The notes below the pieces were generated by a model. That model ran no database searches. It saw only the letters and a list, made by a program, of their open reading frames with translations, and was not told where the DNA came from. A stretch of 59,826 bases of DNA from a virus (lineage: Duplodnaviria > Caudoviricetes). How positions within the stretch are numbered: position 1 is the first letter of the stretch; every line of letters begins with the position of its first letter. Shown piece after piece: positions 2,316 to 35,021 of this stretch. The stretch covers positions 1 through 59,826 of the IMG/VR virus record IMGVR_UViG_3300021197_000662; one strand, written 5' to 3'. A program made the translations under genes and the position numbers.

Positions 2316-5300
2316 ATGGCAAACGTCTATGCGGATAGCAAGCGCACTGGAAAAAGTTACCTAGTTAGTATTGCTGGGGACAGCCCAACACCACAAGAGT
2401 TAGCTGACATTGAGCGGTATGTCGATGCCGTTGAAGGCTTTGGTGCGCCTACCACAGTTCAAGAGTCTCCAGATGAGGTGGGTAATCTCATTGACTTCAC
2501 TCAAGGCGCTGCATCAGGTCTTGCAAGAAGCATTGCCGATGTTCCCGGTGGATTGGCGTCTTTAACTGCTGCTGGTTTAAGAAAATTTGTACCCGGAGAT
2601 CAGGGCGAAGACAGCATAGAGTCTTTTGGTCAAGGCATAACAGATGCTGCTCGTACCGGCATTGATTATGTTATTGGGACTCCAGACGACAACATTGCTG
2701 GAAAAGCTGGACAGGCAATAGGCTCTATTGGGTCTTACTTCCTTGGTGGTGCTGGTGTTGTCAAGGGGCTGGGGGCTTTAGGCAAAAGCGCCTCTGCACA
2801 GAGAATAGGCGGTACGGCAGCAGCGGCTACAATGGGTGTGGGTCAGGGAGCGCAAAATCAAGTAGACAGAATAGCTAGATTTATAGAGCAGGGGGGCGAA
2901 CCTACAGAAAAAGACTTAGCCATCCTAACTGGTGGCCTTATTGGGGCGACTGAGGCGCTACCTATAAGCAAAGCTTTTGGCGTAATAGCAAACATTTTCA
3001 AGAAGGTCCCGAAAGACGTAAAAGAAAGTGCAGTTAAAAAATTAATACCAAGGCTAAAGAGTGCTGCTAAGGTTGGTGGGTATGAGGCCATTCAGGAAAG
3101 CGCGGCTGCTTGGCTTCAAGACCTAACGGAGCAAGGTCTTTATAATCCTGATTTAGATATCTCTATGAGCGCTTACAAAGATGACGCTATCTATGGTGGC
3201 GGGGCTGGCGCAACCTTTAACTTCCTTCTTGAGACTGTGGCTGGCAGAAGAGTCAAAAAGGTTTTAAAGGCTCAAACTCAACTGGTATTGGATCAAAGGG
3301 AGGAGGGTGAAGAAGTTAAACAACAAGTTGAGAGGGCAAAAGGCTCTCTTAATGAGCCTGAAGCCCCTGAAGCTATAGCTGGGTTGCTTACTGGGCCAAC
3401 AGAAGAAGGCGGAGTTAAAGACACTACTGATTTTACAGTAGGCGCTGATGGCGATGCGGTGAGAGAGCGTGACGAATTTGGAAGGCCCATAGATGAATCT
3501 ACTCCTTTTGAAGATGATTTAAAGAACAATCCAAAAGAGGCAACAAAGGCCTTTAATGAAAACTTAAAGGACTTAGGACTTAATCAGGACCAAGAGCAGC
3601 AAGCCTTAGCAGAAGCCGCAAGGGAAACACAGCTTGGCGACCAGCCAGTAGATCTTTCGGAGCTTTCTGAGGGAGAGTCTGCCACTCTCAGGCAATCTCG
3701 CGTTAGAGCTGGCGTTCAGGACGTAGACGGTCCAACTAGCTTAGATGAAATCAAAGATGTACTTGGATTACCCACATACAACAGAATAGGTGCAAGGCAA
3801 AAGCCTAGAACTTGGCAGAAGGCTCTTTCTGAGGAAGAGAAATCTTTAGCCGCTGAAGACGCTGCTATTAAAGAAAAGGTTATAGACAACAAAGACGCTG
3901 CAAAAGTTTTGGTTGAGTCTGGAGAGGTCTTAAACAAAGACGGAACAGTTAACAGATTAAAGCTGCAAAAGGCTTTATCTCTTACCGTCCAGCAGGCTCA
4001 AGCGTTAATCAATAACATGAAAACAGAAGGTGTTGTTGAGCCTGTAAGCAGAACAAAGGTTAGGCCAGCTAATCCACCTACGCCCCCTACGGAGCAGCAG
4101 GAAGCCGAGAGAAGTGCAGAGACTGTCCTTAATGAGCTTACCCGAATGCGGCAAGAGCAGCAGGAGAGAATAAACGCAGCCAAGGAAGTCGGAGTCGGTA
4201 GTCAGGCTGAACAGCTTGCTATTGAGGATGCACAGAGAGCTATTGACGAGCTTGATGCAAAGATCAAAGTTCAGGAAGTAAAGCTCTCTGATGTTAGAGC
4301 GTCTGCTCCACCCAGACCATCAGCCTCTCAGGCAAGAAATAACCAAGCCCTTGTTGTTCAAGAAGAAGCTGAAGGGGCAAAGCCAACAGAAGAATACAAA
4401 AGAAGAATAAACGCTGTAGCCAATGCTTTGCGTAAGTATTTGTTTGGCCTAGGGCTGAAAGATGTTGATTTAGTAAGTCAGAATGTAATTGACTACTCAG
4501 AGACTATTAACCCTGATGGGTCGAAAGACATAAATATTACTGAGGGGTCAGAGCAGGCAGGGGAAAACGCTCGCAGGATTATCACCCTTGCCATGGAGAT
4601 ATATGATCCAAACTTGAGCGAGGCTGAGCTTGAGCAAAGACTGGCTGGCGTCCTAAACCATGAAATAATACACGCTATGAAGGGCCTAGGTCTATTCACT
4701 GATGCTGAATGGGCTAGCCTTGTTAAGGCTGCCGAGAAAAGAAAATACGCAAAGACTATTAATGGCAGAACTATTGATAGAGAATACACCTTCTTGGATA
4801 GAGCGGAGTTTATGTATCCAGAAGACACTCCTGAGTCTCAGCAAGAAGAAGCTGTAGCTGAGATGTTTAGAGCATATGCAGAGGGCCGCATCAAAGTAGG
4901 CGGCAAGCCCAAAGGCTTGTTCAGTCGCATGGTCAGGTTTATCAAGTCAATATTTAACGCACATGCCGATGCTGGGTTCACTAGCGCAGCAGAGATATTT
5001 GATGGCATCAAGTCTGGAAAGGTTGGCCGTAGACAGCGTAACATAAGAGCCGCATCAATTGCTCCTGCTGGCGCTAAATACTCAACTGCTGGGGTTCGTG
5101 GCACGAACATTCGTGCTGGCTTCTTAATTCCTGAGCGAGGAAATGTAGAGCGTATACAGCAGTCATTCAAAGATGTGACAAAGCGCATACCTCAGCTTAC
5201 TGAGGCTGCACAAAAATTGTCCGATGGTACAATTTTATATGATGAGTATGATCGCTTAGTAAATGAGTTTAAGCCAATCATTCCATATGAAACAGTTCCT

Positions 5301-8300
5301 GCTCCAGCTACAAATGAAGAAATGGAGGGAGCTTTAAAATCAAATCAAATCCCTAAACTAAACATGCTTTCAAAGGATATGGATGGTCTTGTGACTGGCA
5401 TGAGACTAGATGTAAGCGCCTATAGGGATTACGGAGTTTGGGTCCCAACTATACATCATGGGAAAAGAAGCAACGTTACAAATAAGGACGGAAAAAACCT
5501 AGCTAATTTAACTATCTCTCATCAATCAACAGGGATAATAGAGAACGCAACATTTGAAGCACCGCAGGGCAGGGCATTAGCTGTTGCTAAGGGAGCGCAG
5601 AAGGGTCCGTTTTCTACAATAGAGGGGACTTACAAACACGCCACGCCAGATCAATCTTTTGCTATCGCACAGCAAATGATGAACGACCCAACAGTTGTGC
5701 AAGTTGGCTTTGATCCTGAGCGTCATTCATATTTTTATGACCGCATGACAACACAGCCTGTAATTAGTGCTGATCTGGTTGTTCAAGTCGGACCGCTAGT
5801 TCTTGCTAAAAACCCTGTGTTTGGAAACAAGTCAGAGTTTAAATTTTCTGTACGCACTATAAGAAACATGCCGACCAACCTAATCGGCCCAATACCAATA
5901 GTGCATGACGTAAAGACCCAGTACATGAACTCTGTTGGCCTTCCGAACAGAAGGCAGGGTGAGTATGTAGAGGTTGATCTTCCGTTGGCAACTCGTATAG
6001 CCGCCGCCTTTGAAGAAGCAGAAGACAGGCCTAACGATCCAGATGTGCAAATTGCTTATCAAGCCATGGCAAACGAGACTATGGCTCAGTGGCAGTTTAT
6101 AAAAAACACCGGCCTAGATGTAGAGTTTATTAAGGAAGACATGGACAACCCTTACCCCAACGGGTCTAGGGATGTCCTTATGGACATAAGAGACAACAAT
6201 CATATGTGGGTCTTCCCCACTGATACTGGTTTTGGTCAGGCATCAATAACTGCTGAGGATGAGGCTGCCAATCCTCTTCTTGCCAAGGCAGATGAAACTG
6301 TTGATGGCATAGACATGCGTATCAATGATGTGTTCCGCATAGTGCATGATTACTTTGGTCATGGGCTAGAGGGAGCAACGTTTACAGCGCGTGGTGAAGA
6401 AAACGCTTGGCAATCTCATGTGAGGATGTATAGTCCTACAGCGGCCAAGGCTATGACTACGGAGACAAGAGGACAAAACTCTTGGGTTAACTTTGGCCCA
6501 GTTGGGGAGCAAAATAGAGAAAACCCTGCATCTACAGTGTACGCAGAACAGAAGATAACCCTTCTTCCTGATTTTGCTGTTAACGAAGGTGTAGCACCAG
6601 ACTTGGAGTCTACAAATGAGCAAGAAAGAATTAATCGAAGCATCAAAGGATCTCGTATCTCAGGAGATGCAAGGTCAGACAGAGCAAGAGTCGATAGAGT
6701 CGCAACAGGATCGGGCAATGTCAGAGGCGAGATTCCAGAGGGCCAAGAAGCTGACTTTGGAACGCCGAAGCCAACAGTTGATGAAAACGGCTTAACTCGC
6801 CTAATACATTACTCTCCTATAGTGGGGCTGGACACCATCAGCCCAAGAGAGCAATTAACAAATAACAGGATGCGTGGAGATGAGCGGGAACGTAAAGTAA
6901 AGTTCCCTAACATCTATCAAGCTAGGTCTTACTTTGGCATGAATGTCGGTGAGGCAAATGGGTACAATCAAGAGGCCACTGTAGGCAATAACGTATACGA
7001 AACTCAAGTACCAGTTGATTCATTATACGACTACGACAAAGACCCAGAAGGCTTTATTACCAAAGCGGCTAATTCCGTTGATGACAACATCATGGAAAGA
7101 ACTTGGAACAAGCCCAAGCAATTCATAACAACAACAGCCGAAAAATCCATAAAGGATGCTGGTTACTCTGGTTACTGGAGTAACTCAAGAATGGGTATGG
7201 TTGCGGCCATGTTCAATGATACTGTTGTGAAGCCAGAAGGCTCTATAGAAAAGCCCGTAAAAAGATCTGCAAGAACAGCAACCATAGATGTACCTAATGT
7301 AAATAACGTTGACGGCGCTAGGATTAGCCAAAGGTTCCCTAAAGGCGCTTCAGCGACAGAAGACCCTATAGAAGAAATACTTCAATTGGGCGCTAATGAT
7401 ATAATTAACAATCCTAAACTGCTTGCCAGAACCGCCGAGATTGTACGAGGGTACAATATAATAACTGAAGAGGAGGCAGCGTCACTTGGCGACAAGGAGT
7501 TGGTCGAAACCCTTATAGAGAGACTTTCTTCTAACCTTGAGTTTGTTTATGACAACGTCCCAGAGGCAACAAGAGAAAGATCAAAGCTTTGGTATGTCGG
7601 CGCTAACAGAATAGCAAATGAAAACGCCTTAAAGTACAGCGAAGAGTCTGGCTCCCCGGTATCTATTGAGCAAGCCGCTGCTGTAATGGCTGCTCTAAGT
7701 CCACAGAAGGACTGGTATCAGAATGTCTCTCTAGGCGAGCGGCTTATAGACATATACAAAACCAAAATGGATTTTGTGCCGACCCCTGAGATGGAAGCAA
7801 CTGCTCGAAGAATATTTCCAAAAGATGTGCATCAGCCAATGCTTGATATTATATTCATGCAGGGGAGAAACATGCCCCTTTCTGAGTACGCCGATGCGCC
7901 CCTTCTGCAAGCTATGTTTATACGATTGTATGATGAAACATATAATGACCGTGGATACTACATCGTTTCTCCTGATGGACAGAACATTGGCTGGGCCAGA
8001 AATGCAAATGGGTCTAGGTCAAGGGTTGCTTGGGGTTCTAATAAAGAGATAACAAAGGCAGTTATGGCTTTAACCAATCCTGAATCAATCTCTTCGGAAA
8101 TGGGCGACAGGCATAAGGTTAGAAACTTCTTTAATAATATAGCTGCTCCATTCTCTCAGGACGGAGATGTAACATCGGATACTCACGCTGTAGCCGCTGC
8201 TCACCTAAAGCCATTGTCTGGCTCGTCTACAGAAGTTCATCACAACTTCGGCACATCACCGGTAGCTTCAAAAAGAGATGAGAACTGGAGAGGGGCCGTT

Positions 8301-11300
8301 TCAAACTCAGCTCCTCTCGGAGTTAAGGGTACATACGCCCTTTATGTTGAGGCACACAGAAGAGCAGCAGCCAGAAGAAATGTTCTCCCTAGAGAGATGC
8401 AGTCTATAACATGGGAGGCTGTAAGGGGATTATTTACCCCAGCGTTTAAGCAAAACAAAAACAATGTTAGGATGATTGACCGTATCTGGAATGACTTCAG
8501 GTCTGGTCAGAAAACAATAGAGGAAGTAAGAGAGGAAGTTTTAAATGAAGCAGGTGACAAAGGAAGATTTCGTCCACCAAGCTGGGAAGGACCCGATAGT
8601 GGAAGCATTAGCAGCCCTGAACTTGCCGTTGACCCGACAGAACTATCTGGAAATGTCGTATCCAGAAGCAATCCCATCGATTACAGCGGAGATGGAGTCG
8701 GAACTACCGGAGGAACTCCTAATGCCGAAACAAAATATAGTAAGCGGTCGGTAAGATACGTCCCATCTTTAGAGCAAGGAACAGGACCACTCATATCAAA
8801 CAACGCCATGCTGAAGGCGTCAGAGCAATCTTACGATAGGATAACGTACAACAACGTAGCTAGAGTTCTTGGAAAACTTTACTCAAAGGTGTTTGACGAA
8901 AAGAAGGCACGGGCTTGGGAAGCTAAGACAGAACGCTTTGTGACTAAGTTTCAGGATGCAATGCTTCCTGTGGGCAAGCTTATGGACGAACTAAGGTCTG
9001 ATGGGCTTAGCATTCCAGACGCAATGGATGTCTACATGAGGGAAGAGCTTGCACAGGGCCTCATGGGCGCTAGGCTAGACGAAAACAAAGCTAATTTATA
9101 CGAGCCATTAACAGACACTATAAAGCAGATAGAAGTTGATCAGGCAAAGATTGATCAACTTGCAAACGTGTCTAGATTTTTTGAGGACGCCAGAGGGGCT
9201 TATGATCCAAAGCTAGCCATTGCTGATGCTTATCTTTATGCACTCCACGCGAAAGAAAGAAATGCATATGTTCTGGCTAGAAACAAAACAGGGCTTGGGT
9301 CAGGAATGTCAGACGGAGAGGCTGATGCGATACTAGCGTGGGTAGACTCTCTGAATGTCCAAAGCAAAAACACCTTAAACGGCATAAAAAATACCGTAGT
9401 ACAAATTGTACAGAACACAAATGACGTAAGAAGAGAAGGCGGCCTTATGGCTGAGGAGTACAGCTTCTCAAACTATGTGCCTTTGCGAGGCATACTTGAC
9501 CCAGAAGAAGACCTTTCAGAGGATCTGGATAGCGTTCCTAGGATGGGAAGAAAGAAAAGAGACAACCTTTACGGAGGCACGGCTTATCAAGACCCAAGAA
9601 TAACAACGGGTAGGGGAACTGAGTACGCTGAAGACATTATAGCAAATGTCATGGTTCAGAACTCTAGGTCTATTGTAGCGGCTGAGAGAAACAAAGTCGG
9701 TCAGGCATTCTTAAATATTATTGATCCAAAGATCATGGACCCTAATGCCGAGTATATAATGGAAAAGGATAACAGGGACGGCATAGCAATTATAGTCGAT
9801 AAAGTAACTCCTGACATGCAAGAAAATGTTCTAAAGGTAAAGGTCAATGGCAGACAAGAGCCTTACAATATTCTTATAAGAGACAACAGGGTCGCCAGAG
9901 CCATGAGAGGCGCTGGTGGGGATGGAATCGAAAGAGGCGGCGCTGTAGTCAGATATATGGCAAAGTTCAACAGATACCTCTCAAACATTAACACAACTTG
10001 GAACCCAGAGTTTGCCATCACAAACTTTTTCAGGGACTTGGAGACTGCTGGGGTAAACATAGGTCAGTACGATCAAGAGGGTATTAGCAGAGAAGTAATG
10101 AAGAACGCCGCCCCTGCCGTAAAGGGAATCCTCGCTGTCACCAGAGAAGGAGGGTTTGAGGGGTATGACAAAACAAACTGGACAGACGTATTTAATGACT
10201 TTGTTTCTGCGGGCGGAAAGAACTCTACCAACCAAGTTGATAGCGTTAAAGATCAAATGGAAAGCATCAAAAAGGTTCTTGATGAGGTTTCCAATAACAG
10301 CATAAAGGGTAAGCTGGGACTTTCTAGGAATGGCTTTCTTTATAAAATTGGCGGGTTCTTAGACGCTTACAACACGGCTGTTGAAAATGGAGTCCGAGTT
10401 GCAACATATCATGCCCTGTTAAAGAGAGGGTTTAGCAAAGACAGAGCAGCTCAAGCAGCCAGAAACGTAACAGTAAACTTTGCAAAGCAGGGGGAAGAAA
10501 AAGCCCTTATGAATGCTTTGTTCCTTTTCTACAATGCATCAGTGCAAGGATCTATGGCCCTGTTTAACGCTGGCATAAGGTCATCAAAGGTACGCAATAT
10601 ATGGGGGGGGATGATTATTGCTGGCGTCCTATTGGATCAATTTGCCGCTGCGGCTTCAGGAGACGAAGACGAGGACGGTGTAAGCGACTACGATGAGCTA
10701 GGTCAGTACACTCTTGAGCATAACATAATATTCCCTACATTTGGGCTTGTGGAACAAAAGTTTTTAAAAATACCTTTAGGGTACGGGCTTAACACGGCAG
10801 TCAATCTAGGTCGATCCATGAGCAGGGTTCAGCGCGGAGAGTACACCCCTGCTGAAGGCTTTAACTCTACATTTGGCACATTAGCAGAATCTCTTAACCC
10901 TCTAGGGGACACTAATTGGGAAAATGCATTAATACCTACTGTAGGCGATCCGTTTATAAGCTTAGCTGTAAACAAAGACTACAAAGGCGACCCTATCGTA
11001 AAGGAAGCATCTCCCTTTGGTGTCCAGAAGCCAGACAGCCAACTGTACTGGTCTAACACAAGCGCACTATTCAAGGGTATAGCTAGGGCTGTCAATTCTG
11101 GCACAGGCGGCACAGAGATAACCCCCGGAATGATAGACATTTCGCCAGAAACGATAGACTTCTGGGCGCAATACTTTACTGGCGCAGCAGGAGCATTTGC
11201 TCTTAGGACTGCTGAGTCTCCCTCAAAGACAATTGAGTCATTCAGAGGCGACCTTGAAGGTGATCTAATAAGGGAAATACCATTTGCCAGAAAGCTATTC

Positions 11301-11636
11301 ACCTCTCCCTCTTCAAGAGAGGACACAGGCCAGTTTATCGAAAACAGGGATAAGGTTCTAAGGGCGGCAAAGGAGCTTCAGTTCTCTTTGCAGTCTCAAG
11401 ACCCAGAGAGAGCCTCTGAGATAAGAAAAGAGTACGCCAACGAGTTAAAGATTTATGGTCAGCTAAAGGCCATGAACAACTACAGAAACAAGCTTGTCAG
11501 AAACAAGAACAAAGTTCAGTCAAGCAAGACAATACCAGAAGAGCAAAAGAAGGCTATCATAAGAAGCCTAAGAGACAAGATACAGGTAATAGAAAAAAGA
11601 GCCGCAATCATTATGAGGAATGCTGGCGTAAGGTAA
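2316..11636 (+). CDS. Giant polyvalent internal virion protein (3106 aa): metallopeptidase-like, ADP-ribosyltransferase (ART)-like, HhH-glycosylase-like and LPD38-like domains
   Basis: SD AAGGAG; HEIIH...EEAVAE (4659); HDYFGH...GEENAW (6345); LIHYS...RSYFG...DAGYSGY (~6800-7200); ALSPQ...KVRNF...DTHA...QSITW (~7690-8420); AARNVTVNF...FLFYNASVQG LPD38-like C-terminus; short K(Y/F/R)S linkers between domains. Confidence 0.85.
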   Translation: MANVYADSKRTGKSYLVSIAGDSPTPQELADIERYVDAVEGFGAPTTVQESPDEVGNLIDFTQGAASGLARSIADVPGGLASLTAAGLRKFVPGDQGEDSIESFGQGITDAARTGIDYVIGTPDDNIAGKAGQAIGSIGSYFLGGAGVVKGLGALGKSASAQRIGGTAAAATMGVGQGAQNQVDRIARFIEQGGEPTEKDLAILTGGLIGATEALPISKAFGVIANIFKKVPKDVKESAVKKLIPRLKSAAKVGGYEAIQESAAAWLQDLTEQGLYNPDLDISMSAYKDDAIYGGGAGATFNFLLETVAGRRVKKVLKAQTQLVLDQREEGEEVKQQVERAKGSLNEPEAPEAIAGLLTGPTEEGGVKDTTDFTVGADGDAVRERDEFGRPIDESTPFEDDLKNNPKEATKAFNENLKDLGLNQDQEQQALAEAARETQLGDQPVDLSELSEGESATLRQSRVRAGVQDVDGPTSLDEIKDVLGLPTYNRIGARQKPRTWQKALSEEEKSLAAEDAAIKEKVIDNKDAAKVLVESGEVLNKDGTVNRLKLQKALSLTVQQAQALINNMKTEGVVEPVSRTKVRPANPPTPPTEQQEAERSAETVLNELTRMRQEQQERINAAKEVGVGSQAEQLAIEDAQRAIDELDAKIKVQEVKLSDVRASAPPRPSASQARNNQALVVQEEAEGAKPTEEYKRRINAVANALRKYLFGLGLKDVDLVSQNVIDYSETINPDGSKDINITEGSEQAGENARRIITLAMEIYDPNLSEAELEQRLAGVLNHEIIHAMKGLGLFTDAEWASLVKAAEKRKYAKTINGRTIDREYTFLDRAEFMYPEDTPESQQEEAVAEMFRAYAEGRIKVGGKPKGLFSRMVRFIKSIFNAHADAGFTSAAEIFDGIKSGKVGRRQRNIRAASIAPAGAKYSTAGVRGTNIRAGFLIPERGNVERIQQSFKDVTKRIPQLTEAAQKLSDGTILYDEYDRLVNEFKPIIPYETVPAPATNEEMEGALKSNQIPKLNMLSKDMDGLVTGMRLDVSAYRDYGVWVPTIHHGKRSNVTNKDGKNLANLTISHQSTGIIENATFEAPQGRALAVAKGAQKGPFSTIEGTYKHATPDQSFAIAQQMMNDPTVVQVGFDPERHSYFYDRMTTQPVISADLVVQVGPLVLAKNPVFGNKSEFKFSVRTIRNMPTNLIGPIPIVHDVKTQYMNSVGLPNRRQGEYVEVDLPLATRIAAAFEEAEDRPNDPDVQIAYQAMANETMAQWQFIKNTGLDVEFIKEDMDNPYPNGSRDVLMDIRDNNHMWVFPTDTGFGQASITAEDEAANPLLAKADETVDGIDMRINDVFRIVHDYFGHGLEGATFTARGEENAWQSHVRMYSPTAAKAMTTETRGQNSWVNFGPVGEQNRENPASTVYAEQKITLLPDFAVNEGVAPDLESTNEQERINRSIKGSRISGDARSDRARVDRVATGSGNVRGEIPEGQEADFGTPKPTVDENGLTRLIHYSPIVGLDTISPREQLTNNRMRGDERERKVKFPNIYQARSYFGMNVGEANGYNQEATVGNNVYETQVPVDSLYDYDKDPEGFITKAANSVDDNIMERTWNKPKQFITTTAEKSIKDAGYSGYWSNSRMGMVAAMFNDTVVKPEGSIEKPVKRSARTATIDVPNVNNVDGARISQRFPKGASATEDPIEEILQLGANDIINNPKLLARTAEIVRGYNIITEEEAASLGDKELVETLIERLSSNLEFVYDNVPEATRERSKLWYVGANRIANENALKYSEESGSPVSIEQAAAVMAALSPQKDWYQNVSLGERLIDIYKTKMDFVPTPEMEATARRIFPKDVHQPMLDIIFMQGRNMPLSEYADAPLLQAMFIRLYDETYNDRGYYIVSPDGQNIGWARNANGSRSRVAWGSNKEITKAVMALTNPESISSEMGDRHKVRNFFNNIAAPFSQDGDVTSDTHAVAAAHLKPLSGSSTEVHHNFGTSPVASKRDENWRGAVSNSAPLGVKGTYALYVEAHRRAAARRNVLPREMQSITWEAVRGLFTPAFKQNKNNVRMIDRIWNDFRSGQKTIEEVREEVLNEAGDKGRFRPPSWEGPDSGSISSPELAVDPTELSGNVVSRSNPIDYSGDGVGTTGGTPNAETKYSKRSVRYVPSLEQGTGPLISNNAMLKASEQSYDRITYNNVARVLGKLYSKVFDEKKARAWEAKTERFVTKFQDAMLPVGKLMDELRSDGLSIPDAMDVYMREELAQGLMGARLDENKANLYEPLTDTIKQIEVDQAKIDQLANVSRFFEDARGAYDPKLAIADAYLYALHAKERNAYVLARNKTGLGSGMSDGEADAILAWVDSLNVQSKNTLNGIKNTVVQIVQNTNDVRREGGLMAEEYSFSNYVPLRGILDPEEDLSEDLDSVPRMGRKKRDNLYGGTAYQDPRITTGRGTEYAEDIIANVMVQNSRSIVAAERNKVGQAFLNIIDPKIMDPNAEYIMEKDNRDGIAIIVDKVTPDMQENVLKVKVNGRQEPYNILIRDNRVARAMRGAGGDGIERGGAVVRYMAKFNRYLSNINTTWNPEFAITNFFRDLETAGVNIGQYDQEGISREVMKNAAPAVKGILAVTREGGFEGYDKTNWTDVFNDFVSAGGKNSTNQVDSVKDQMESIKKVLDEVSNNSIKGKLGLSRNGFLYKIGGFLDAYNTAVENGVRVATYHALLKRGFSKDRAAQAARNVTVNFAKQGEEKALMNALFLFYNASVQGSMALFNAGIRSSKVRNIWGGMIIAGVLLDQFAAAASGDEDEDGVSDYDELGQYTLEHNIIFPTFGLVEQKFLKIPLGYGLNTAVNLGRSMSRVQRGEYTPAEGFNSTFGTLAESLNPLGDTNWENALIPTVGDPFISLAVNKDYKGDPIVKEASPFGVQKPDSQLYWSNTSALFKGIARAVNSGTGGTEITPGMIDISPETIDFWAQYFTGAAGAFALRTAESPSKTIESFRGDLEGDLIREIPFARKLFTSPSSREDTGQFIENRDKVLRAAKELQFSLQSQDPERASEIRKEYANELKIYGQLKAMNNYRNKLVRNKNKVQSSKTIPEEQKKAIIRSLRDKIQVIEKRAAIIMRNAGVR
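6616..6795 (+). CDS. Putative nested (+1 frame) 59-aa protein inside the giant gene
   Basis: GGAG-7nt-ATG; MSKKELIEASKDLVSQEMQGQTEQESIESQQDRAMSEARFQRAKKLTLERRSQQLMKTA*; host frame here is an R/G/S-rich linker. Confidence 0.55.
   Translation: MSKKELIEASKDLVSQEMQGQTEQESIESQQDRAMSEARFQRAKKLTLERRSQQLMKTA
8545..8754 (+). CDS. Putative nested (+1 frame) 69-aa acidic protein inside the giant gene
   Basis: GAGG-9nt-ATG; DPIVEALAALNLPLTRQNYLEMSYPEAIPSITAEMESELPEEL looks like a folded helical protein; host frame is a G/S/P-rich linker. Confidence 0.7.
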   Translation: MKQVTKEDFVHQAGKDPIVEALAALNLPLTRQNYLEMSYPEAIPSITAEMESELPEELLMPKQNIVSGR

Positions 11637-21852: not shown

Positions 21853-22062
21853 CTAATGTCTCTCATGGTCTTGATCTGAAAATTTACATGCAACATCTCT
21901 GCCTTTTGATCCGAAAACTACAATGTCGAGATCAGCATCTATATCACCATGCATTCTTTGATCATGGAAAAGGTGTATGAAATCGGGCTTGCCAAAAACT
22001 TTGATCGCGGCTGAAAATTCCGCATCAGTTCTGAACCCGACAAAATGGACTGATCTTTTCAT
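21853..22062 (-). CDS. Small hypothetical protein
   Basis: VHFVGFR...AIKVFGKPDFIH; SD GGGAG. Confidence 0.7.
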   Translation of the reverse strand: MKRSVHFVGFRTDAEFSAAIKVFGKPDFIHLFHDQRMHGDIDADLDIVVFGSKGRDVACKFSDQDHERH

Positions 22063-22105: not shown

Positions 22106-23119
22106 TTACAGCATCAATTCTTTGCCATCCGAAAGTAAGAACTTGCGGAATGCATCAGTCTTTTTAATGCTTGGTGTGCGGTTCATTGCATCCCTAATTG
22201 AGAACACCGCAAATTCTTTGTGCGGTAATCTTTTGAGATACTGAATGATATTGCCAATATTTTTATCGTTGGCTCGACTACTCAGAGCCGCAGAAACCGC
22301 ATAGCACACCGCTGGGTCTTCGGCGATTGGTGCGCTATCTGGGTTGGCAATCAGTGCATCAATGTCTGGGCAACTCTCGTAAACTTTTTTGTAGCCCATA
22401 AACTCAGCACATGCACCTCGCCCCACTTGACCTGACACCGCTTCGTTTTCGTTCACCGCATCAAGCTTGAAACCCATGATGGTATCGACACGCTCCCATG
22501 ATCTAGGTGAAGGGCAAGCATCAGCATCGCGATCAAACTTGTGCAGCAACTCTGGCCGAAAGCGCAGGAAGCCGGTGATCAAAGGCGATACCCCGACTGA
22601 ATTATAGTAGGCCACCGCGTCTTCTAGATCGCTGTCCACAGAAGTGAACAAAAGTCGATCCTTTACATGCGATGGGAGTTGATTTGTACCAGCACGATCC
22701 GACATTTTGTTGCCAGCACATACGATAGCCCAACCGTCAGGCAGTCTATGCTCACCAATCCTACGCTCATTAATTATGACCGCTGATATGTTGAGGCAGG
22801 CAGTCGGGGCTTGCGCTAATTCATCAAGGAACAAAATTCCTTCGCCCTCAGTTGGCATCCAATCTGGACGCAGGCGTTTCATTCCATCACCATCATTCAC
22901 CAGCCAGCCTGCAAGCTCGCCAGCATCGTACTGGGCAAGGCTGACCGTCTTTAATGATATCCCACGATCTTCAGCGATTTGCTGAACGATGGTAGTTTTA
23001 CCAAGACCGGCTGATCCGACAAGGTATGGGATTGGCCGTTGTGCATCACGCCCATTTGAATGCTTCATTTGACTGTCGATACATGCCTCGACTATGGCTC
23101 TTGCTTGCGATATACGCAT
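22106..23119 (-). CDS. MoxR-like AAA+ ATPase
   Basis: Walker A GSAGLGKT; Walker B ILFLDE; AGN sensor; SPRSW. Confidence 0.9.
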   Translation of the reverse strand: MRISQARAIVEACIDSQMKHSNGRDAQRPIPYLVGSAGLGKTTIVQQIAEDRGISLKTVSLAQYDAGELAGWLVNDGDGMKRLRPDWMPTEGEGILFLDELAQAPTACLNISAVIINERRIGEHRLPDGWAIVCAGNKMSDRAGTNQLPSHVKDRLLFTSVDSDLEDAVAYYNSVGVSPLITGFLRFRPELLHKFDRDADACPSPRSWERVDTIMGFKLDAVNENEAVSGQVGRGACAEFMGYKKVYESCPDIDALIANPDSAPIAEDPAVCYAVSAALSSRANDKNIGNIIQYLKRLPHKEFAVFSIRDAMNRTPSIKKTDAFRKFLLSDGKELML

Positions 23120-23140
23120 ATCTAATCTCCACTAATATTT

Positions 23141-23156
23141 TTGTACCATCGTACAA
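23141..23156. promoter_or_regulatory. Palindromic operator upstream of the AAA ATPase
   Basis: TTGTACCATCGTACAA. Confidence 0.65.
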
Positions 23157-23186
23157 ATTTTGGTTAAGGTTGGTAGGCAAAGCCGC

Positions 23187-23897
23187 CTAAGCGGCTTCAC
23201 CTTCAAGTTGGTTAATCATGGCATCAACTGCCTCATTTTCTGACTGGGTGATATCGCCAGCAGTTTGACTGCCTTGTCTCATATCAGCCCTAACCCTCAA
23301 TGCATTTTCTAATTCATTTTTGAAGGTATCAACAATCGCCAGAAAAGCATCTTCAGTCTGGTCTTTTTCACCCAAACCACCGATCCACTTATCGCCGTCA
23401 ACACGATTGCCATCAGCATCTTTTTTGGTGGATCGCTTGCCGACAAGCTTATCGACAAGAAGCTGGGTTGCAGTCTTGTTTGGCTCATCAGCAACGGCCT
23501 TAATTAGTTTGGCCTCGCTGGTGATATCGGCATCTTCAAACACATCACCCACCATTGTCGGTGTGATGTTGTCACCGTTGATGCCAAAAATCCTAATCGC
23601 ACCGGCTGTGTTTTTGATCAACTTATTGGCCATGCCATCAGTAATCTCTATTTGTTTCATGTTGATAAGCTGGTTTTTAAGATCACTGCTAATTTTGGGT
23701 GGCAGATTTCCCTTTTGCAAACCATGCTTGGCAACGCATGAAATGATCACGCAGTAGGTATCAAGCTTTCGGCTGTTAGCCTCTTTTGAACTCTCTTTTG
23801 AATTTTCTTTAAGAGCCTTGATGGTCTTTTCATTCTCACCGATGACAGTAAGATTTGTTGGATCGATAGGTAAATTTTTAGCAGCAGATGTCTGCAT
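23187..23897 (-). CDS. Early hypothetical protein
   Basis: Start likely MQTS (GGAGAC-N4-ATG); directly downstream of the hammerhead. Confidence 0.7.
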   Translation of the reverse strand: MQTSAAKNLPIDPTNLTVIGENEKTIKALKENSKESSKEANSRKLDTYCVIISCVAKHGLQKGNLPPKISSDLKNQLINMKQIEITDGMANKLIKNTAGAIRIFGINGDNITPTMVGDVFEDADITSEAKLIKAVADEPNKTATQLLVDKLVGKRSTKKDADGNRVDGDKWIGGLGEKDQTEDAFLAIVDTFKNELENALRVRADMRQGSQTAGDITQSENEAVDAMINQLEGEAA

Positions 23898-23922
23898 AAC
23901 AGTCTCCATCTTTAAGGTTGAA

Positions 23923-23998
23923 ATATAGCAGGACGCTATGACCCAGCACCGGCTGGGTTTCGGGCGTGTCCTACGCGCCCATCATCAGATAGCTATAT
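23923..23998 (-). ncRNA. Type I hammerhead ribozyme with loop II pseudoknot
   Basis: GCUAU-CUGAUGA-U-GGGCG-CGUAGGACA-CGCCC-GAAA-CCCAGC-CGGU-GCUGGG-UC/AUAGC-GUCCUGC; complete core, three stems, GUC site. Confidence 0.88.
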
Positions 23999-24223
23999 GG
24001 CAATGTATTCGGTCAACAATAGTGTGCCTTGCTTCACAAGCTTGCCGTTTTGCATCAGGTAGTAGGCGTGGAAGCGGCGGTTTTTATAAACCGCGATCAT
24101 CTCAGGCTTTTCCCCAAACGCCTTGTTGCAGCGAAAAATGTATTCACCCAATTCCTTGATCGTTGGCTTGAGTGGGTACAAAGTTGTCTTACCGTTGTCG
24201 TTGAGTTGATTAGCTGAATACAT
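23993..24223 (-). CDS. Small early hypothetical protein
   Basis: 76 aa; stop codon abuts the hammerhead. Confidence 0.65.
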   Translation of the reverse strand: MYSANQLNDNGKTTLYPLKPTIKELGEYIFRCNKAFGEKPEMIAVYKNRRFHAYYLMQNGKLVKQGTLLLTEYIAI

Positions 24224-24387
24224 TACGCATTCCCCTTTTTCTTTGGTTTACGTCTGGAAATAATCTCAGCCAATGTGAGCTGAAAAACTGGTGTGGATTG
24301 GTACTGCTCATCTTGAAATGCAATCTGCTTGACGATTTCAGTTTTGTTGGCTGCATCAGGTGATGGAATGAAAGGTGATTTTTTCAC
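24223..24387 (-). CDS. First early gene, 54 aa (not in ORF track)
   Basis: GGGAG SD, GTG start; MKKSPFIPSPDAANKTEIVKQ...KKKGNA*; TAATG coupling. Confidence 0.6.
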   Translation of the reverse strand: MKKSPFIPSPDAANKTEIVKQIAFQDEQYQSTPVFQLTLAEIISRRKPKKKGNA

Positions 24388-24397
24388 GGCGTGGCTC

Positions 24398-24446
24398 CCT
24401 GTTTCGCGTGTCTCATCATAACTGGGGTACGATCCCCAGCGACAGG
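24398..24446 (-). ncRNA. Degenerate type III hammerhead-like motif
   Basis: CCUG-UC-GCUGGGG-AUCGUA-CCCCAGU-UAUGAUGA-GACACGC-GAAA-CAGG; C3 altered, minimal stem II. Confidence 0.5.
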
Positions 24447-24999
24447 TTTTGTTACAATGTCGGGTCTCTCTCGACTGCCCGATTACAGCGACACATGTGC
24501 CGCCTCAGTATTACCACCGCATCCATTATCCTAGTGTCAGGCCTAATCGATTTTTGCTTGGGCGTAGGCGTATTCAGATGCCATCAGAGCCGTAGTGCGG
24601 TAGTGTCCAGTCTTCGGGGTTGCTAGCCCCTCGCCCCAGTGGGCGGTTAAATCAGTAGCGGTGGCCTCCTAAAAAATTTGACAAAAAAAACTTATTTCTT
24701 TTCGTAGCACAGCTAGACAACGCATGCAAACACTAAATGCATCTAACAACACTAATTTGTCAGAGGGTACAAATGTAAGCCGTTTGAACCATGCGTTTTG
24801 TTGTAGTGTGCCTCCTAATAAGTAGACGATCCAGAAACCACTATTATTGTGTGACCATGATATTTTTTTTCCTCTCAAACAGTAGACGTTTCAGAACGCA
24901 AAATTATTCACTGCTATTTTATTTTATTTTGAGACTGTGACATATCCGCAACACCAACCCTCAAAACACCCTAATATTTGTTTGTACACAAACAAGTTT

Positions 25000-25037
25000 G
25001 TTCACCATGTGTTCACGGTCTGGAACAAAACGTGAAA
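25000..25037. promoter_or_regulatory. Two alphaproteobacterial-type LexA (SOS) boxes
   Basis: GTTC-ACCATGT-GTTC (25000-14) and GAAC-AAAACGT-GAAA (25023-37). Confidence 0.65.
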
Positions 25038-25143
25038 ACGAGCGAGGTTGATCTGTGAGTAGGGGCTGGCGAAAGCCGTGTATCATTCCTACCAAAAACA
25101 CCTTTAATCGCTGTATGAGCTTCTATGGGCGTTTAATCGCCAT

Positions 25144-25188
25144 GAACAAAAGGGGAACATTGCCATTTTGGGGGTTATTGTCTATATG
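25144..25188 (+). promoter_or_regulatory. LexA box abutting the putative terS promoter
   Basis: GAAC-AAAAGGG-GAAC (25144-58), then TTGCCA-17 nt-TATATG (25160-88). Confidence 0.65.
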
Positions 25189-25234
25189 TGAGGAATAGAG
25201 CCGATCTGGTGCGATTTAGGGTGTGATGTTATTA

Positions 25235-25250
25235 TTGTACGAGGGTACAA
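25235..25250. promoter_or_regulatory. Palindromic operator upstream of terS
   Basis: TTGTACGAGGGTACAA. Confidence 0.65.
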
Positions 25251-25312
25251 ATCCAAAAAGCCCGACCAAGCGATAGCGCATTTCGGTGGCACATCTATAG
25301 AGGGATAAAGAC

Positions 25313-25792
25313 ATGGGTAAAGACAAAGATAAGACAAACCATTTGAAGTTGGTTGTCAGTGCAGGCGATAAGCTAACCAGTAAACAGGAACACTTTTGTC
25401 AATTGGTTGCCAAGGGTGAAACCCTGACAGATGCATATCGACAAGCCTACGATGTGAGTGCCAAGACAAAGCCAAGCACAGTATGGACAAACGCCTCAAA
25501 GCTGGCCACAGAAAACACTAAGGTGTCACTAAGGATCAAGGCCATTACTGAGGAAATTACAGCGCGAAAGGCGACAGACGATGACCGCCTAAAAATCTGG
25601 ATCACTGATCGGTTAAAGACTGAAGCCATGGAAGCGGAGAGTGATAGCGCGCGCGTGGCAAGCTTGACCCAGCTAGGCAGATCGATTGGCATGTTCAGTG
25701 ACAGGGTTGAGACAGACAACGTGGCCGACAGATCAGCGGGTGAAATCGAAGCCGATATCCAGCGCAGGCTGGCATCGATCCTTGGCGAGTGA
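25313..25792 (+). CDS. terS: Terminase small subunit
   Basis: LTSKQEHFCQLVAKGETLTDAYRQAY...ASKL HTH pattern; upstream of terL. Confidence 0.75.
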   Translation: MGKDKDKTNHLKLVVSAGDKLTSKQEHFCQLVAKGETLTDAYRQAYDVSAKTKPSTVWTNASKLATENTKVSLRIKAITEEITARKATDDDRLKIWITDRLKTEAMEAESDSARVASLTQLGRSIGMFSDRVETDNVADRSAGEIEADIQRRLASILGE

Positions 25793-33532: not shown

Positions 33533-34438
33533 ATGGCTATTTCACGCGCACAACTGTTAAAGGAGCTTTTGCCGGGTCTAAATGCATTGTTTGGTATGGA
33601 GTACGCAAAGTACGAAAACGAGCATGCAGAAATCTATGAAACTGAGACTTCAGAGCGTAGCTTTGAGGAAGAGGTCAAACTGTCAGGCTTTGGTGCTGCA
33701 CCAGTCAAGCCTGAAGGTTCCGCGATTTCATATGATTCCGCTCAAGAATCCTTCACCGCCCGTTACAACCACGAAACCGTGGGAATGGGCTTCTCTGTAA
33801 CGGAAGAAGCAATGGAAGATAATTTGTACGATGCGCTCTCAGCTCGTTATACAAAAGCTCTTGCCCGCGCTATGGCTTACACAAAGCAAGTCAAAGCAGC
33901 TTCTCTCCTGAACACAGGCTTCACAACCTTTACATCTGGCGATGGCGTTACTCTGTTTAATGCTAATCACCCGACTGTACAGGGTGGTGTAAACGCCAAC
34001 CGTCCAGCAGTAGCTGCTGACTTGAACGAAACATCTCTTGAGGATGCAGTAATTAACATTGCTGCGTTTGTTGACGAGCGTGGGCTACTTGTAGCCGCCC
34101 GTCCTCAAAAGCTGATTGTTCCACCAGCACTAATGTTTGTTGCAACTCGCTTGCTACAGACTGATCTTCGTGTCGGGACTGCCGATAACGACATCAATGC
34201 ACTGCGTTCAAACGGTTCAATTGCTCAGGGATATCGTGTCAACCACTACTTGCTTGATAACGATGCCTTCTTCCTGACAACTGATGTTCCAAACGGCATG
34301 AAGCATTTTGTCCGTACAGCAATGTCAACATCTATGGATGGTGACTTTGACACAGGCAATGTTCGCTACAAGGCCCGTGAGCGTTACAGCTTCGGTGTTT
34401 CAGATCCACTTGGCGTTTACGGCTCTCCCGGAGCTTAA
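33533..34438 (+). CDS. Major capsid protein
   Basis: MAISRAQLLKELLPGLNALFG...LIVPPAL...YKARERYSFG; strong SD; terminator follows. Confidence 0.9.
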   Translation: MAISRAQLLKELLPGLNALFGMEYAKYENEHAEIYETETSERSFEEEVKLSGFGAAPVKPEGSAISYDSAQESFTARYNHETVGMGFSVTEEAMEDNLYDALSARYTKALARAMAYTKQVKAASLLNTGFTTFTSGDGVTLFNANHPTVQGGVNANRPAVAADLNETSLEDAVINIAAFVDERGLLVAARPQKLIVPPALMFVATRLLQTDLRVGTADNDINALRSNGSIAQGYRVNHYLLDNDAFFLTTDVPNGMKHFVRTAMSTSMDGDFDTGNVRYKARERYSFGVSDPLGVYGSPGA

Positions 34439-34491: not shown

Positions 34492-34559
34492 GTTATAATT
34501 AATAAGAACCTTGACAGTCGCATAGGGCGGCTGACATTAGCCGAGACAAGGAGTTCCTC

Positions 34560-35021
34560 ATGGCTACTACCACTTTTTCTGGTCCTATTAAGGCCGGAAC
34601 AATCAAGAACACTACAGGCACAACAGTTGGAACTGATATCGCAAATGTCGGTCAAGTTGTTATGGCCCAAACATTTTCAGCAGACTTGTCAGGTGGCGCT
34701 CTAGCTGCTCAGGTCACTGACGTTGTTATCCCTGCAAATTCTCAAATTATTGACTGTGTGATTGACATCATTACAGCCGCAAATGCTTCAACCAACCTTA
34801 GTGTTGGCGATACCGCAGGTGGAGCAGCTACAATTCTGAACACCTTTGCATCTGGAACAGACGCTGGACGTAAGTACCCAACAACACAAGCTGGCGCTGC
34901 ATTGGCTTGGCAAGACACTGGCACATCAGACATTCGTTTGACTGTGACCGCGTCTGCTGCCACAAACGCAGGCCTTGTTCGCTTTACAATCCTGTATCAG
35001 CAAAACAATAACCTTGCTTAA
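34560..35021 (+). CDS. Virion structural protein
   Basis: MATTTFSGPIKAG start; A/T/G-rich beta protein. Confidence 0.7.
   Translation: MATTTFSGPIKAGTIKNTTGTTVGTDIANVGQVVMAQTFSADLSGGALAAQVTDVVIPANSQIIDCVIDIITAANASTNLSVGDTAGGAATILNTFASGTDAGRKYPTTQAGAALAWQDTGTSDIRLTVTASAATNAGLVRFTILYQQNNNLA

Follow-up and report, generated by a model that had tools for sequence, protein, structure and literature searches.

The DNA analysed here, which we call the window, is an entire IMG/VR virus record of 59,826 bp and stems from an uncultured marine phage. On its minus strand a hammerhead motif (23993-23923) lies in the spacer between two genes, one encoding a 76-aa protein and the other a 236-aa protein of unknown function (Table 1). 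The TAG stop codon of the 76-aa ORF (23995-23993) abuts the motif, its G being the first base of stem I. The 236-aa gene lies close to the start of a minus-strand module that also encodes a MoxR ATPase, a VWA/DUF2201 protein, an exonuclease, and a Sak-like annealing protein. The packaging and structural module (terminase, portal, capsid), which starts at 25313, is oriented divergently to it. The term "early operon" used for the minus-strand module in the initial annotation of the window is plausible.

The 236-aa protein could not be assigned to a Pfam or PHROG family, and 59 homologues were found in metagenomes. Its AlphaFold2 model was mostly helical (pLDDT 75.2) and had no match in the PDB at E ≤ 0.001 when searched with Foldseek. 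A promoter and terminator scan of the region 22900-25400 returned fewer promoter-like sites than shuffled sequences and nothing at the ribozyme.

Two further features of the window were recorded. At 23176-23196 (minus strand) the stop codon of the 236-aa gene is overlapped by a small hairpin, AAGCCGC UUAG GCGGCUU, which is not followed by a U tract. On the plus strand, positions 2316-11636 form a giant ORF of 3106 aa. Over its C-terminal ~900 residues it matches functionally uncharacterised PHROG families, among them phrog_14770 (E 7.7e-106).

Table 1. Coordinates of the hammerhead motif, its neighbouring genes, and further copies in related loci. Positions refer to the window unless a related locus is named.
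Feature	Position	Strand	Remark
Upstream gene, 76-aa ORF	23993..24223	minus	Stop codon abuts ribozyme
Stem I, 5′ strand GCUAU	23989..23993	minus	Pairs with 23935-23939 in 100% of cells (alignment A4)
Catalytic core C3-A9, CUGAUGA	23982..23988	minus	
Extra U between A9 and G10.1	23981..23981	minus	
Stem II	23962..23980	minus	GGGCG 23980-23976 / CGCCC 23966-23962
Loop II, CGUAGGACA	23975-23967	minus	9 nt
Core G12 A13 A14	23959..23961	minus	GAAA, 23961-23958
Stem III hairpin	23941..23958	minus	A15.1 + CCCAGC 23958-23952, loop CGGU, GCUGGG + U16.1 23947-23941
Predicted cleavage site	23939..23940	minus	3′ of C17 (23940), 5′ of A1.1 (23939); hammerhead core numbering
Stem I, 3′ strand AUAGC	23935..23939	minus	5′ end of downstream RNA if cleaved
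Pseudoknot, 3′ strand GUCCUGC	23928..23934	minus	Partner: loop II GUAGGAC 23974-23968
Repeat of stem I 5′ strand, GCUAU	23925..23929	minus	Can pair with AUAGC 23939-23935
Leader after predicted cut	23898..23939	minus	42 nt; GGAG ribosome-binding site 23907-23904
Downstream gene, 236-aa protein of unknown function	23187..23897	minus	Likely start ATG 23897-23895
MoxR-type ATPase	22106-23119	minus	Next gene in the window; minus-strand module
69-aa protein	21853-22062		
Type III copies in relatives	L004 2924-2981; L011 1706-1782 (also L012, L013)		Preceded by GC-rich hairpin
Second type I copies in relatives	L009 911-969; L015 3151-3208; L016 2585-2642		Directly after 236-aa gene

Architecture of the hammerhead motif

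Read in the direction of the RNA, the motif is composed of the 5′ strand of stem I, the core, the stem II hairpin, the GAAA, the stem III hairpin, C17, and the 3′ strand of stem I. Stem I is open and stems II and III are closed by loops, which is the type I topology. The core has the residues of the hammerhead class, i.e., C3 U4 G5 A6 N7 G8 A9, G12 A13 A14, the pair A15.1-U16.1, and a residue other than G at H17. It is adjoined by three helices of 5, 5, and 7 bp (stems I, II, and III, respectively), and covariation is present in 10 of the 17 stem pairs. The cleavage triplet is GUC. A tertiary contact is provided by a pseudoknot of 5-7 bp between loop II and the 3′ tail, which in the window comprises seven pairs including one G-U (GUAGGAC/GUCCUGC) and which may speed cleavage. 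The location of the motif, stems I to III, the core with its extra U, the GUC triplet, and the pseudoknot were thus all found where the initial annotation had placed them.

Conservation and covariation among related copies

The evaluation of conservation was based on two alignments, A3 with 12 copies and A4 with 37 distinct copies from related marine viral contigs, and on tallies over all 65 distinct copies. In A3, 97.2% of the cells paired and both-sided changes were present in 12 of the 24 pairs. In A4, 96.6% of the cells were paired compared to 80.4% in shuffles, 136 cells were changed on both sides compared to 41.1 in shuffles, and the covariation score was 0.416 compared to 0.111. None of 500 shuffles reached the paired percentage or the covariation score of A3, and none of 500 reached the score of 0.416 in A4; as the aligned copies are related, these tests are inflated and the shuffle counts are not probabilities. 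When the 3′ partners in A4 were slid by 1-3 columns, between 23.5% and 52.1% of the cells were paired.

Compensatory changes were found in 12 of the 24 pairs of A4, namely in one pair of stem I, four of the five pairs of stem II, five of the seven pairs of stem III, and two pairs of the pseudoknot. Further pair types did not exceed the shuffles (23 compared to a mean of 23.9, a value reached by 403 of 500). Two rows of A4, L059 and L061, are misaligned in inner stem III. The core was invariant in all 37 relatives with the exception of N7 (U or C), and G12 A13 A14 was invariant as well, which is in part a matter of construction because the search pattern fixed stem I, the core word, and GAA.

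At the pair of stem I adjacent to the core, CG was present in 30 and UA in 7 of the 37 copies. Stem II, in which 97.8% of the cells of A4 paired, occurred with 8 distinct 5′ strands among the 65 copies, and stem III with 10. The same stem II was combined with different stems III and the reverse, and this mixing argues for many independent changes. In the pseudoknot, two adjacent pairs swapped together, one being AU in 24 and GC in 10 copies and the other GC in 26 and AU in 11 (n = 37). All five central pseudoknot pairs were kept in 59 of the 65 copies, the remaining six being not fully paired; the variants were AGGAC/GUCCU (41 copies), GAGAC/GUCUC (14 copies), CGGAC/GUCCG, and wobble variants. 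The invariance of the core and the compensatory changes in 37 distinct relatives support the proposal that the motif is a hammerhead with a pseudoknot between the stem I region and loop II.

The initial annotation had also extended stem I outward by a helix AUAUA/UAUAU around a bulge. These strands can indeed pair in the window, but the extension is not conserved: its pairing among the 37 relatives was at the level of shuffles (54.1% of the cells compared to 53.7%), the first pair alone was invariant, and the second pair was kept in 20 of the 37 copies. The outer helix was therefore ruled out as a conserved feature, and the "bulge" is better described as a 3′ tail that forms the pseudoknot.

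The position after A9 was occupied by U in 49 copies and by G in one copy, and was absent in 15 of the 65. Since it varies this freely, we regard it as a tolerated, looped-out position and not as a defect. An extra base between A9 and G10.1 is tolerated in some natural hammerheads; a literature search for such a base returned no paper. Four copies (L003, L043, L049, and L057) have a C-C mismatch or bulge at the first, core-adjacent pair of stem II and a C-U mismatch at the second pair of stem III, also core-adjacent. These copies may be slower or may fold in another register.

Chance expectation and Rfam searches

To estimate how often such a motif arises by chance, we used a descriptor of our own that covered all three hammerhead topologies and permitted G-U pairs, with dinucleotide shuffles of the window as controls. 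With loose settings (stems of at least 4, 3, and 4), 25 matches were obtained in 300 shuffles, and a chance resemblance within an intergenic spacer could appeal to this rate of ~0.08 matches of random sequence per window. At the stem lengths observed (at least 5, 5, and 7), however, none of 1500 shuffles matched, even though the pseudoknot was not demanded, and the conservation and covariation across 37 to 65 copies likewise speak against chance, which we consider practically negligible as an explanation. The element is almost certainly real and adds a new case to a kind of element that is already known.

The real window contained exactly one descriptor match, with none on the plus strand, and neither the descriptor nor model R1 with filters off revealed a second copy of the ribozyme in the window. 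A weak match of model R1 at 4271-4321 (19.3 bits) was inspected by eye and rejected as a hammerhead, as it consists of the flanking words only and has no stem II, GAAA, or stem III.

A search with hammerhead models in Infernal had been suggested as a check, and here the outcome was negative, the element being unmatched by any Rfam hammerhead model. On the window, no Rfam hammerhead was obtained at the gathering score, and none at E ≤ 10 in the 221-nt slice 23850-24070. The model Hammerhead_1 (RF00163), which is 45 positions long and has a gathering threshold of 34 bits, gave nothing at E ≤ 10 on the window and did not reach this threshold. Type I copies in 12 loci of relatives were all missed by Rfam, too. 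We attribute this failure to the curated model and to incomplete coverage by the library, and do not count it against the motif, because the motif is conserved and covaries among relatives. As the limits of RF00163 are those of a model, we file the element under the hammerhead class and not under RF00163. What the current Rfam models miss is a whole hammerhead subfamily of marine phages.

The sole Rfam match in the window was a Mu-gpT-DE RNA (RF03012) at 34509-34562 on the plus strand (61.1 bits, E 1e-11). It is located between the major head gene (33533-34438) and an ORF at 34560-35021, and its final bases are the ATG of this ORF.

Occurrence of the hammerhead in related phages

Viral contigs were searched with the 236-aa protein, which yielded 4 close loci, and with an alignment of its metagenomic homologues, which yielded 24 more distant loci. 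In 9 of these 28 loci (L001, L002, L003, L009, L010, L014, L015, L016, and L019) the 236-aa gene is directly preceded by a type I hammerhead built in the same way. In four loci (L004, L011, L012, and L013) a type III hammerhead was present in this slot. The type III copies of L011 to L013 were found by the descriptor, and those of L004 and L011 were scored by RF00008 with 34.0 and 34.9 bits, respectively, which is below its gathering score of 48.5 bits; in L004, C replaces U4. No hammerhead was detected upstream in 15 of the 28 loci with the descriptor and model R1 and, for 7 of those 15, with Rfam, so the ribozyme is dispensable in the wider family. The scan with model R1 covered L001 and L002 through the duplicate loci L007 and L008. 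In L020 a type III-like sequence was noticed by eye, which did not pass the descriptor. The loci L017 and L018 have no ribozyme in the spacers on either side of the 236-aa homologue and contain a GC-rich hairpin instead, followed by a ~20-nt repeated motif (TTCATTTG.TCATTTACCA-like) and a ribosome-binding site. This hairpin and motif could represent another device for setting RNA ends, or a promoter.

The presence of two unrelated hammerhead versions, differing in topology, in one and the same slot argues that the cutting activity is the property under selection. It also bears on the question of whether the motif is a conserved hammerhead-like fold that no longer cuts efficiently and serves instead in protein binding, as a signal for pausing or termination, or as a target of RNases. 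Such a reading could account for the extra nucleotide in the core and for the lack of a score with the Rfam models, and slow or inactive phage variants with core changes exist according to the sections of PMC3088659 consulted. However, the catalytic core positions are all kept in the 37 aligned copies, the extra position varies freely, as described above, and the replacement by a type III hammerhead in some relatives is hard to explain unless catalysis matters. With respect to termination, no U-rich tract follows the structure, and the terminator scan had no site there. We therefore judge a fold that has lost efficient cutting to be very unlikely.

Related records carry one or two copies, and pairs flank the 236-aa gene. 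The second copy in L009, L015, and L016, a type I hammerhead (Table 1), is followed by the MoxR ATPase gene or by an 81-aa ORF, and further contigs with two copies exist. In the window, the spacer between the 236-aa gene and the MoxR gene does not contain a second ribozyme. A pattern built from the invariant columns had 39 matches in viral contigs and 59 in contigs from metagenomes, and the names of many of these contigs mark a marine origin. The family pattern had no match in a set of 185,579 prokaryote genomes, one per species, so its context is not that of an integrase-linked prophage. Cultured phages gave no match either, by blastn with 1.3 kb of the region or by tblastn with the 236-aa protein. 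Judged by TerL, the nearest cultured phages are 023Pt_psg01 and the Pelagibacter phages HTVC027P and HTVC023P (53-56% identity), and model R1 found no copy in HTVC027P.

Position relative to the flanking genes and predicted function

According to the initial annotation, the element starts at the upstream stop codon and a cut would fall ~40 nt before the next start codon. This position proved to be conserved among the relatives. The distance from the predicted cut to the start codon was 35-47 nt in 37 of 38 copies, the remaining locus ending too early. In 25 of the 38, the stop codon of the longest upstream frame reached the edge of stem I or extended 1 nt into it. The flanks upstream of the ribozyme in L001, L014, and L009 appear, by eye, to encode similar C-terminal residues. 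Of 36 downstream proteins, 23 were homologues of the 236-aa protein, with identities down to 25%, 7 were MoxR ATPases, 1 was a 69-aa protein, and 5 were other small proteins.

The element is, in our view, very probably a type I self-cleaving hammerhead in the polycistronic RNA of the minus strand, which would provide the 236-aa gene with a defined 5′ end. As soon as the motif has been transcribed, the three stems would form around the conserved core, and loop II would pair with the 5-7 nt directly 3′ of stem I, the resulting pseudoknot aligning stems I and II. We infer that the RNA would then cut itself cotranscriptionally after C17, between 23940 and 23939. The upstream fragment would have the folded ribozyme with a 2′,3′-cyclic phosphate as its 3′ end, and the downstream mRNA would begin with a 5′-hydroxyl and a 42-nt, mostly unstructured leader containing the ribosome-binding site. 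The 60-nt downstream product was predicted to be no more structured than shuffles (z = 0.18). The likely purpose of such a cut is a defined 5′ end for the 236-aa gene (and, in relatives, also for the MoxR ATPase gene), which would uncouple the stability and translation of the 236-aa gene from the upstream small ORFs. A putative role in RNase-independent mRNA processing or stabilisation had been proposed in the initial annotation.

RNA datasets contained small shares of the region in seven runs. Four marine metatranscriptome runs provided assembled contigs only, which are short, derive in part from relatives, and carry no information on RNA ends. The predicted cut site is overlapped on short stretches by two contigs (records 4 and 9), which are compatible with cleavage as well as with its absence.

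A hammerhead that cuts might also be selected for its effect on the other side of the cut, i.e., for disposal of the upstream small-ORF RNA or protection of its 3′ end, or, in relatives with two ribozymes around the 236-aa gene, for the release of a unit-length RNA that might be ligated into a circle. In favour of this view, the complete ribozyme fold would stay attached to the 3′ terminus of the upstream fragment, and L009, L015, L016, and further contigs have a copy on either side of the 236-aa gene. Spliced or circular products were raised as a possibility in the available parts of PMC3088659, although its authors report there having failed to detect any. Circle formation cannot apply to the window, which has only one copy, and the constant distance to the ribosome-binding site argues for a role connected with the downstream gene. 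Selection for an upstream or circular product is thus unlikely, and the supply of a defined 5′ end for the 236-aa gene remains the preferred function.

A repeat of the stem I strand in the leader

The GCUAU sequence of the stem I 5′ strand recurs a short distance downstream of the predicted cut (Table 1). In the 37 copies, the repeat can pair with the 3′ strand of stem I in 185 of 185 cells, and the end pair was GC in 26, AU in 7, and GU in 4 copies. A tally over the 65 copies showed that all 14 with an A at position 1.1 have the matching U in the repeat. The hairpin formed by the repeat is energetically weak and is absent from the minimum-energy fold.

These observations suggested a tentative model, which we consider doubtful, in which the ribozyme and its near-invariant leader constitute a modular 5′-end cassette with a conformational switch. 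After the cut, the 3′ strand of stem I (RUAGC) would be released from the ribozyme and form base pairs with the GCUAY repeat, which lies 5 nt further downstream. The resulting hairpin, flush with the 5′-OH end, would block re-ligation and protect the new mRNA, and separation of the products would be aided by the ribosome that terminates on the upstream ORF. Because the repeat helix is weak, the switch that couples product release to a 5′ hairpin is offered as a speculative case only. If the cassette reading were true, this phage lineage would be a natural experiment in interchangeable devices for setting mRNA 5′ ends, in which a type III hammerhead, or a conserved motif preceded by a GC-rich hairpin, takes the place of the element in related phages.

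Comparison with known ribozymes

A hammerhead in a phage operon will by itself not surprise a specialist. What makes the present subfamily a clean test case for the function of phage ribozymes is its compactness and its fixed distance to the ribosome-binding site. It accompanies one and the same gene module in phages with protein identities as low as 25%, and some relatives use another topology and others none.

A search of the literature on hammerheads in phage genomes and marine viromes did not recover this subfamily; the supplementary alignments of PMC3088659 may already contain sequences belonging to it. Deep-sea RNA viromes are treated in a paper from 2026 (PMC13481778).

The Rfam families RF00163 and RF00008 (Hammerhead_3) describe the same ribozyme class, and RF00008 scores type III copies in relatives, whereas the element of the window does not come up at E ≤ 10 with any Rfam model.

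The purpose of self-cleaving ribozymes in bacteria is described as still undefined in the excerpt of PMC6765202 available, in which it is suggested that they split polycistronic transcripts into parts differing in stability or translation. The ribozymes considered there belong to other classes and other gene contexts than the hammerhead described here, and the question they raise is the same.

Pseudoknot hammerheads of prophages and phages were already described in 2011 (Perreault et al. 2011, PMC3088659). The sections of that study on which we draw describe hundreds of bacterial and phage hammerheads, with pseudoknots in ~40% of all representatives and in all three types, as well as pairs or triplets of hammerheads that flank phage genes, and they report that phage and prophage hammerheads cleave during in vitro transcription. 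In the same sections, the phage hammerheads resemble those found here in that they are intergenic in phage gene clusters, sometimes with two copies per gene, and in that the processing of long phage transcripts is their proposed role. The present subfamily differs from this set, as far as it is described there, by being of type I with a pseudoknot between loop II and the RNA 3′ of stem I, by a near-invariant stem I and leader, and by its association with one module (236-aa protein, MoxR ATPase) of uncultured marine phages.

A parallel for the predicted function is HHphage of the haloarchaeal viruses HF1 and HF2, which, according to the same parts of PMC3088659, is located 13 nt before the start of an early gene and for which a transcript 5′ end was mapped within 3 nt of the cleavage site. 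As proposed here from the sequence for the hammerhead of the window, HHphage would set the 5′ end of an mRNA. Unlike the window element, HHphage is described in that source as having insertions near C3 and a need for high salt in addition to the short distance of 13 nt to the start codon, whereas the core in the window is standard apart from one extra U and is followed, after the predicted cut, by a leader of 42 nt.
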